A stretch of 64,000 nucleotides of DNA from Escherichia coli. GTDB lineage: Bacteria > Pseudomonadota > Gammaproteobacteria > Enterobacterales > Enterobacteriaceae. Shown here one piece after another: positions 26,382 to 26,546 of this stretch. Position numbers and translations under genes: made by a program. The stretch lies in NCBI RefSeq assembly GCF_036507355.1, contig NZ_AP027877.1. One strand, 5' to 3'. The stretch's first letter is position 1, and the number at the start of each line of letters is the position of its first letter. The notes beneath the pieces are model-generated. The model was not told the DNA's origin and did not search any database. It saw only the letters and a program-made list of their open reading frames with translations.

Positions 26382-26474
26382 ACGCATTGCACGATGCCGC
26401 AAAGGCATAAAAAGTCGATGGCGTTGAATATTTTTTCAGCGCCATTTTTATTGATGCGCGGGAAGGAAATCCCT

Positions 26475-26488
26475 ACGCAAACGTTTTC
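26475..26488 (+). promoter_or_regulatory. PurR operator (acgcaaacgttttc) at the cvpA-purF promoter
   Basis: Near-exact match to the PurR box consensus, followed by an extended -10 like tgttagaat. Confidence 0.7.
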
Positions 26489-26546
26489 TTTTTCTGTTAG
26501 AATGCGCCCCGAACAGGATGACAGGGCGTAAAATCGTGGGACACAT

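Follow-up and report, generated by a model that had tools for sequence, protein, structure and literature searches.

How many genes of the annotated cvpA-purF-ubiX unit are governed by a single PurR operator, and at what step does the repressor act? The first of these questions was raised by a first-pass annotation of the 64-kb stretch of Escherichia coli DNA analysed here (the window, 64,000 nucleotides), which had recognized a PurR box and a neighbouring extended -10 element upstream of cvpA and had taken their position to imply purine repression of the whole unit rather than of purF alone. We examined the operator, the promoter, and the two intergenic junctions of the unit in the window and in related genomes, and compared them with published binding, start-site, and 3'-end data.

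Results

Gene order and identity to K-12

The window is a segment of the E. coli chromosome with the gene order dedD-cvpA-purF-ubiX-argT (Table 1). The region was matched in 5425 of 5426 complete E. coli genomes, in which the annotation gives this same order, and dedD, cvpA, purF, and ubiX were each named by NCBIfam equivalog or subfamily models with scores far over the cut-offs. The strain is a non-K-12 E. coli. In an ungapped comparison with K-12 MG1655, we observed scattered substitutions in dedD, purF, and ubiX and one at 28600 in the hairpin following purF, and not a single substitution from 26392 to 26986. The promoter stretch is thus identical to that of K-12, so that experiments conducted in K-12 carry over to the window base for base.

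The intrinsic terminator of the folC-dedD unit has a predicted folding energy of -22.1 kcal/mol (z = -4.5) and a mean identity of 0.91 in 80 Enterobacteriaceae sequences. This strong terminator is positioned 29 bp 5' of the PurR box and shields the cvpA promoter from folC-dedD transcription. REP/BIME repeats occupy positions 26262-26400, between dedD and the cvpA promoter, and this fragment is present in 3-35 copies per E. coli genome. Sub-threshold naRNA4 matches on the REP elements (38 bits) were the sole matches in an Rfam search of 25500-29600. BIMEs upstream of cvpA were proposed to be attenuators (Naville and Gautheret 2010). In genomic SELEX, the dedD/cvpA spacer (about 26260 of the window) was assigned a weak peak of RpoN holoenzyme (31-32%), and in vitro run-off arrays reported transcription of this spacer on the minus strand, opposite to cvpA; we did not see a sigma-54 consensus on the minus strand of the dedD-cvpA spacer (about 26260).

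Table 1. Positions of genes and regulatory features around cvpA-purF-ubiX (window coordinates)
Feature	Position	Strand	Remarks
dedD	ends 26288		upstream of cvpA
Intrinsic terminator of the folC-dedD unit	26417..26446	+	12-bp stem, then TTTTTATT; terminator scan
PurR operator (PUR box) ACGCAAACGTTTTCTT	26475..26490	no strand	16 bp; consensus left half, right half off at 2 positions
Extended -10 TGtTAGAAT (TGTTAGAAT), promoter cvpAp1, sigma-70	26495..26503	+	published -10; near-invariant across genera
cvpA-purF start site	26511 G (5' RACE, -36 from cvpA ATG); 26510 (nuclease/S1 mapping, -37)	+	Mendoza-Vargas 2009
5' UTR of cvpA	26511..26546	+	36 nt; mean identity about 0.9 across genera
cvpA	26547..27035	+	colicin V production / inner-membrane protein; first gene of the unit; NCBIfam NF008100, 338 bits; RefSeq annotation
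purF	27072..28589	+	amidophosphoribosyltransferase; starts 36 bp past cvpA; TIGR01134, 542 bits
Stable hairpin after the purF stop (CAGGGTGCC ggtct GGCACCCTG)	28600..28625	+	no U-tract
Promoter-like motif TTGCAA-N17-CAAAGT	28625..28653	+	before ubiX; candidate internal ubiX promoter or 5' element
ubiX	28684..29253	+	flavin prenyltransferase; annotated third gene of the unit; NF004685, 310 bits
Terminator-like hairpin + TTTT	29261..29285	+	3' of ubiX; RNA fold -15.5 kcal/mol, z = -3.1; likely end of the full-length unit

The operator upstream of cvpA

The sequence acgcaaacgttttc lies at 26475-26488, exactly where the first-pass annotation had placed it, and the full 16-bp box extends to 26490. 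One half-site reads ACGCAAAC, the central CG is at 26482-26483, and the surrounding sequence of operator and promoter reads ...ggaaatccctACGCAAACGTTTTCTTtttcTGTTAGAATgcgccccgaacagg... By comparison to the palindromic consensus ACGCAAACGTTTGCGT, which has the same central CG, 14 of the 16 positions agree. The earlier description of a near-exact PurR box was borne out by these two mismatches and by identity to the PurR motif published for cvpA-purF-ubiX.

Within the 64-kb window, the box is the sole match to the consensus at two or fewer mismatches and likewise at three or fewer. The chance expectation at two or fewer mismatches is 0.05 per window, and 5 of 100 shuffles contained any match. We also scored the window with a PurR position matrix; it was constructed from the ChIP-derived motifs that Cho et al. 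2011 give in their Table 1, of which all 27 besides the cvpA motif were used. The box scored 21.7 bits, the best of 128,000 positions on both strands and a value within the range of the training motifs (12.0-24.8 bits). The next unrelated match in the window reached 13.5 bits, and a score of 21.7 bits was never attained when the window was simulated 200 times with a first-order Markov model. The sequence ACCAAAGCGATGGCAT at 16097-16112 is the weak PurR ChIP motif listed by Cho et al. for fabB-mnmC; its 13.4 bits arise by construction, given its membership in the matrix training set. Further sub-threshold matches to the matrix are located at 42464-42479 and 53538-53553.

A lookup of the PurR regulon annotation, which had been proposed as a check, returned the unit cvpA-purF-ubiX with this very 16-mer, given as AAGAAAACGTTTGCGT, the reverse complement of 26475-26490 (Cho et al. 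2011, PMC3159470). In that study, the ChIP-chip peak at the unit was present only with exogenous adenine, the site was classed as previously characterized, PurR sites were described as generally located between -35 and -10 and acting on initiation, and the E. coli IMP-pathway genes, including purF, were stated to be under PurR/purine repression. Purified PurR shifted the cvpA-purF regulatory fragment in an EMSA (PMC5829826). RNA-seq of a Yersinia pestis purR mutant showed purF up by about 2 log2 units; the genes selected from it for validation by qRT-PCR included cvpA.

The promoter cvpAp1 and its start site

The first-pass annotation had compared tgttagaat, at 26495-26503, to an extended -10, and this identification held. 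The motif has TGnTAnnnT geometry, with TG one base 5' of the hexamer TAGAAT, A at position 2, and T at position 6; it coincides with the published -10 and lies 7-8 nt 5' of the start site. By itself, this TGnTATAAT-like motif is common and statistically unremarkable (the window has 27 one-mismatch matches, versus 36 expected); it carries weight because of its position relative to the start site and its near-invariance. The -10 was assigned as ttctGTTAGAATgcgc, in class 10_S70 (-10 only) with no -35, is also quoted as GTTAGAAT, again without a -35, and serves a transcript beginning Gaacaggatgacagggcgt, that is, at 26511 of the window (Mendoza-Vargas et al. 2009, PMC2760140).

Counted from a +1 at 26511, the operator covers -36 to -21, TAGAAT lies at -13 to -8, and the TG falls at -16/-15; a +1 at 26510 moves each of these by one. 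The hexamers at 17- and 18-bp spacing in the -35 region, ACGCAA and TACGCA, agree with TTGACA at 2-3 of 6 positions; both fall within the operator. Activity of cvpAp1 would be expected to depend on the TG motif. A generic sigma-70 promoter scan of 25500-29600 made no call at the cvpA promoter; the scan is uninformative for a -10-only promoter such as cvpAp1, because it demands a match to the -35. The 5' UTR of cvpA gave no significant fold (z = -0.12) and no Rfam match in the search of 25500-29600. Between the -10 and the start site, the discriminator consists entirely of G and C (GCGCCCC, from 26504). GC-rich discriminators are typical of ppGpp/DksA-sensitive promoters, and that of cvpAp1 is possibly of this type.

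Conservation of operator and promoter

A protein-anchored CvpA scan, with one genome per species, yielded 80 Enterobacteriaceae loci, including Escherichia, Salmonella, Citrobacter, Enterobacter, Klebsiella, Raoultella, Kosakonia, Buttiauxella, Cedecea, and Mangrovibacter. Some of the conservation described here reflects relatedness, because these loci belong to one family with CvpA identities of at least 90%. The PurR box was found at -70 to -75 of the cvpA ATG in all 79 loci with upstream sequence, and this position was kept while the dedD-cvpA spacer of the same loci ranged from 153 to 804 bp. It is identical to ACGCAAACGTTTTCTT in 78 of the 79; the single variant, ACGCAATCGTTTTCTT, scores 21.4 bits.

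Mean column identity in the 80 aligned Enterobacteriaceae sequences was 0.999 in the box, 1.0 in the four bases between the box and the TGn, and 0.997 in TGnTAGAAT, and the block 26470-26503 is almost invariant in these loci. Identity was about 0.9 in the upstream terminator hairpin and in the 5' UTR, and 0.37 across genera in the REP-containing stretch farther upstream (26262-26400). A 100-bp promoter region was single-copy in 5425 of 5426 complete E. coli genomes. The identical 16-mer AAGAAAACGTTTGCGT is present at -82 of cvpA-purF in Haemophilus influenzae (Sinha et al. 2013, PMC3739930). Because the right half deviates from the consensus and yet is unchanged in H. influenzae and in all but one of the 79 Enterobacteriaceae loci, its sequence suggests a double constraint, in which it may be held both by a tuned PurR affinity and by its function as promoter spacer.

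Coupling of purF to cvpA

The two genes are on the same strand and are separated by 36 bp that are unstructured (z = -0.05) and contain no promoter-like site in the promoter scan and no terminator. Between the cvpA ATG and position +50 of purF, the best score on the PurR matrix was 4.7 bits for the window, and none of the 80 loci exceeded 10.6 bits; the weakest of the ChIP-derived training motifs scores 12.0 bits. Judged by sequence, purF lacks an operator of its own and must be repressed through the cvpA promoter, because no second PurR box precedes it.

The spacer measures 14-38 bp in 71 of the 80 loci and 71-181 bp in the other 9. Insertions of 35-150 bp into the normally roughly 35-bp spacer were observed in nine loci from several genera (L007, L042, L046, L058, L061, L066, L071, L078, and L080). 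They carry terminal inverted repeats, for example GAGTTTGGTT...AACCAAACTC, at the site GGCTTA|ACGAGG, and look like small MITE or REP-type elements. The insertions lie inside the operon, and purF stays joined to the cvpA promoter.

The purF-ubiX junction

The purF-ubiX spacer has 94 bp and opens with a 9-bp perfect hairpin (28600-28622). Under two growth conditions, Term-seq identified a 'primary' purF 3' end at 2,428,685(-) (Adams et al. 2021, PMC7815308, supplementary file 1), which maps to 28625 of the window, two bases past the hairpin. A stable hairpin (-12 to -30 kcal/mol) is located 3' of the purF stop in 81 of 81 sequences, and the stem sequences vary between genera. RNAalifold returned almost no consensus structure for the spacer (-1.07 kcal/mol), and the hairpin was scored per sequence because MAFFT cannot align hairpins with differing stem sequences. 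A U-tract (at least five T) follows the hairpin in 11 of 71 sequences with an adjacent ubiX versus 3 of 10 without, a comparison that is not clean. The search of 25500-29600 returned no Rfam match in the purF-ubiX spacer.

Among the 71 sequences in which ubiX directly adjoins purF (70 loci and the window), 55 have an exact TTGCAA and a -10-like hexamer at a fixed 17-bp spacing; the other 16 carry variants of TTGCAA, such as TTGCGT and TTGCAT. The hexamer, CA(A/C/T)(A/T)GT, always keeps A at position 2 and T at position 6. No match to the TTGCAA-N17 motif was found in about 2.4 kb past purF in the 10 species without an adjacent ubiX. As a promoter, TTGCAA-N17-CAAAGT is weak, with 7 of 12 consensus positions and no call by the promoter scan. 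A ubiX start site is absent from the Mendoza-Vargas supplements, and the SMRT-Cappable-seq supplements contain none of cvpA, purF, or ubiX. We rejected TGGCAC-N6-TTGCA (28613-28629) as a sigma-54 site, since its GG-to-GC spacing is longer by one base than such a site requires and TGGCAC belongs to a hairpin arm that is not kept in other genera. Following TTGCAA-N17-CAAAGT, a GCC(C)T...AGGGC pairing would cover the Shine-Dalgarno sequence of ubiX.

ubiX is not directly 3' of purF in 10 of the 80 Enterobacteriaceae species (L006, L012, L021, L035, L037, L041, L048, L065, L071, and L076), among them Salmonella enterica and Klebsiella oxytoca. In Salmonella enterica subsp. arizonae, a 480-amino acid sigma-54-type activator is encoded on the opposite strand 3' of purF, and several species without an adjacent ubiX have a canonical terminator (hairpin and T-run) after purF. 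The Term-seq data of Adams et al. also contain 3' ends within cvpA (26704, which is 157 nt into the ORF, and 27016, near its end) and within purF (27340), as well as a very abundant 'orphan' 3' end just 5' of argT (about 29485), in the C/A-rich stretch acacaatacacaAcat.

Discussion

Here we regard it as practically certain that 26475-26490 is the classical purF operator and that PurR represses cvpA-purF from it by blocking initiation at cvpAp1. PurR occupancy with adenine in vivo, binding in vitro, and the start site have been established by published experiments on an identical sequence, alongside which stand the strength and uniqueness of the motif in the window, its geometry, its invariance across genera, and the lack of an internal operator; nothing that we found contradicts this reading. 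In the mechanism that we propose, PurR, a member of the LacI family, would bind the PUR box as a dimer with hypoxanthine or guanine as corepressor. The bound repressor would cover about -36 to -21 of cvpAp1, a sigma-70 promoter with a TGn-extended -10 and no usable -35, and would occupy DNA needed by RNA polymerase, so that binding or opening is prevented and initiation at 26510/26511 is blocked. Simple occlusion (steric exclusion) is the best-supported mode of repression, as we infer it. One operator sets purine repression for both cvpA and purF, a single site governing the two because only 36 bp separate them and this spacer has neither a promoter nor a terminator nor a second operator, and ubiX would receive whatever transcription passes the hairpin after purF.

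LacI/GalR-family operators have the central CG and similar half-sites in common. The 16-mer could in principle have arisen by chance, or belong to another LacI-family regulator whose sites have a AAACGTTT core, such as RbsR, with PurR irrelevant at this locus, and the right half-site, off the PurR consensus at two positions, would fit another regulator. This proposition seems to us extremely improbable, and the ChIP and EMSA data in practice refute it: the enrichment of PurR with adenine in ChIP-chip lies exactly over the motif, and purified PurR shifts the fragment. Coincidence is further opposed by the low chance expectation per window and by a box that is the same in nearly all loci and in H. 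influenzae, and the box precedes the gene for the committed enzyme of purine synthesis. With PurR retained as the regulator, a second alternative concerns the reach of its control, which would be complete for cvpA-purF only. Many transcripts would end at, or be trimmed to, the hairpin after purF, and ubiX would also be transcribed from a weak constitutive promoter of its own in the spacer. The Term-seq 3' end at 28625 in two growth conditions, the hairpin that persists in every sequence despite differing stems, and the fixed-spacing motif, present before ubiX in 55 of 71 sequences and without a match 3' of purF in the species lacking an adjacent ubiX, all favour such an uncoupling. So does the need of ubiX for its own promoter in the 10 of 80 species that lack it directly past purF. 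For H. influenzae, Sinha et al. 2013 (PMC3739930) give a unit of cvpA-purF alone, and a meta-analysis placed cvpA and purF among the genes down-regulated by multiple stressors and ubiX among the up-regulated ones.

Standard annotation, however, treats cvpA-purF-ubiX as one unit, and in vitro run-off gave similar sigma-70/sigma-S ratios for the three genes (1.85, 2.12, and 1.90), consistent with read-through. Moreover, the hairpin lacks a U-tract and is therefore poor as an intrinsic terminator, and the mapped 3' end may be a processing product. The motif before ubiX matches only 7 of 12 consensus positions, was missed by the scan, and has no counterpart among the Mendoza-Vargas start sites. 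Weighing both sides, we place this uncoupling of ubiX somewhat short of an even chance in the specific form given above. A more elaborate proposal strikes us as possible but rather doubtful: a PurR-controlled core of cvpA-purF would have ubiX loosely attached, the hairpin would set the 3' end of the RNA, TTGCAA-N17-CAAAGT would be a PurR-independent internal promoter, and the non-consensus right half of the operator would reflect a double constraint. If true, the internal promoter would keep ubiquinone synthesis going when purines are plentiful.

Of the whole-unit repression that the first-pass annotation had inferred, the part concerning cvpA and purF stands, given a 36-bp spacer devoid of promoter, terminator, and operator; for ubiX, the mapped 3' end after purF and the conserved promoter-like motif indicate that it is probably coupled to the cvpA-purF unit only partly. 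The 3'-end data and the comparison across genera suggest that the textbook three-gene operon consists of a tightly regulated two-gene core and a semi-independent third gene. A real operator and its promoter had been recognized and correctly placed from the raw sequence, and the residual value of the locus is confined to the purF-ubiX junction.

The cvpA-purF site is already known: it is the E. coli purF operator, described in the 1980s and re-confirmed genome-wide in 2011, and its regulation is ordinary and textbook. The purF operator is the founding example of the PurR regulon and was used for footprinting and crystal structures. For the cvpA-purF site, Cho et al. cite the early footprinting and mutational work of Makaroff and Zalkin 1985 and Rolfes and Zalkin 1988. 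In comparison with the E. coli purF operator and cvpAp1, the window presents the same locus, with coinciding 16-mer, -10, start site, and operon name, and no difference in operator or promoter. The promoters of purHD, purMN, purEK, purC, purT, and purL in the pur regulon are likewise repressed by PurR with hypoxanthine or guanine and share with cvpA a 16-bp imperfect palindrome, ACGNAAACGTTTGCNT, over the core promoter. The cvpA site differs from other PUR boxes in its right half, GTTTTCTT instead of GTTTGCGT, and in ChIP-chip it was occupied only with adenine, whereas purC, purMN, and purEK gave a signal also without adenine. The roadblock-type operators of purB and purR have the same repressor and motif as cvpA; however, they are placed within the transcribed region or ORF, where they block elongation, whereas the cvpA site, at -36 to -21, acts on initiation.
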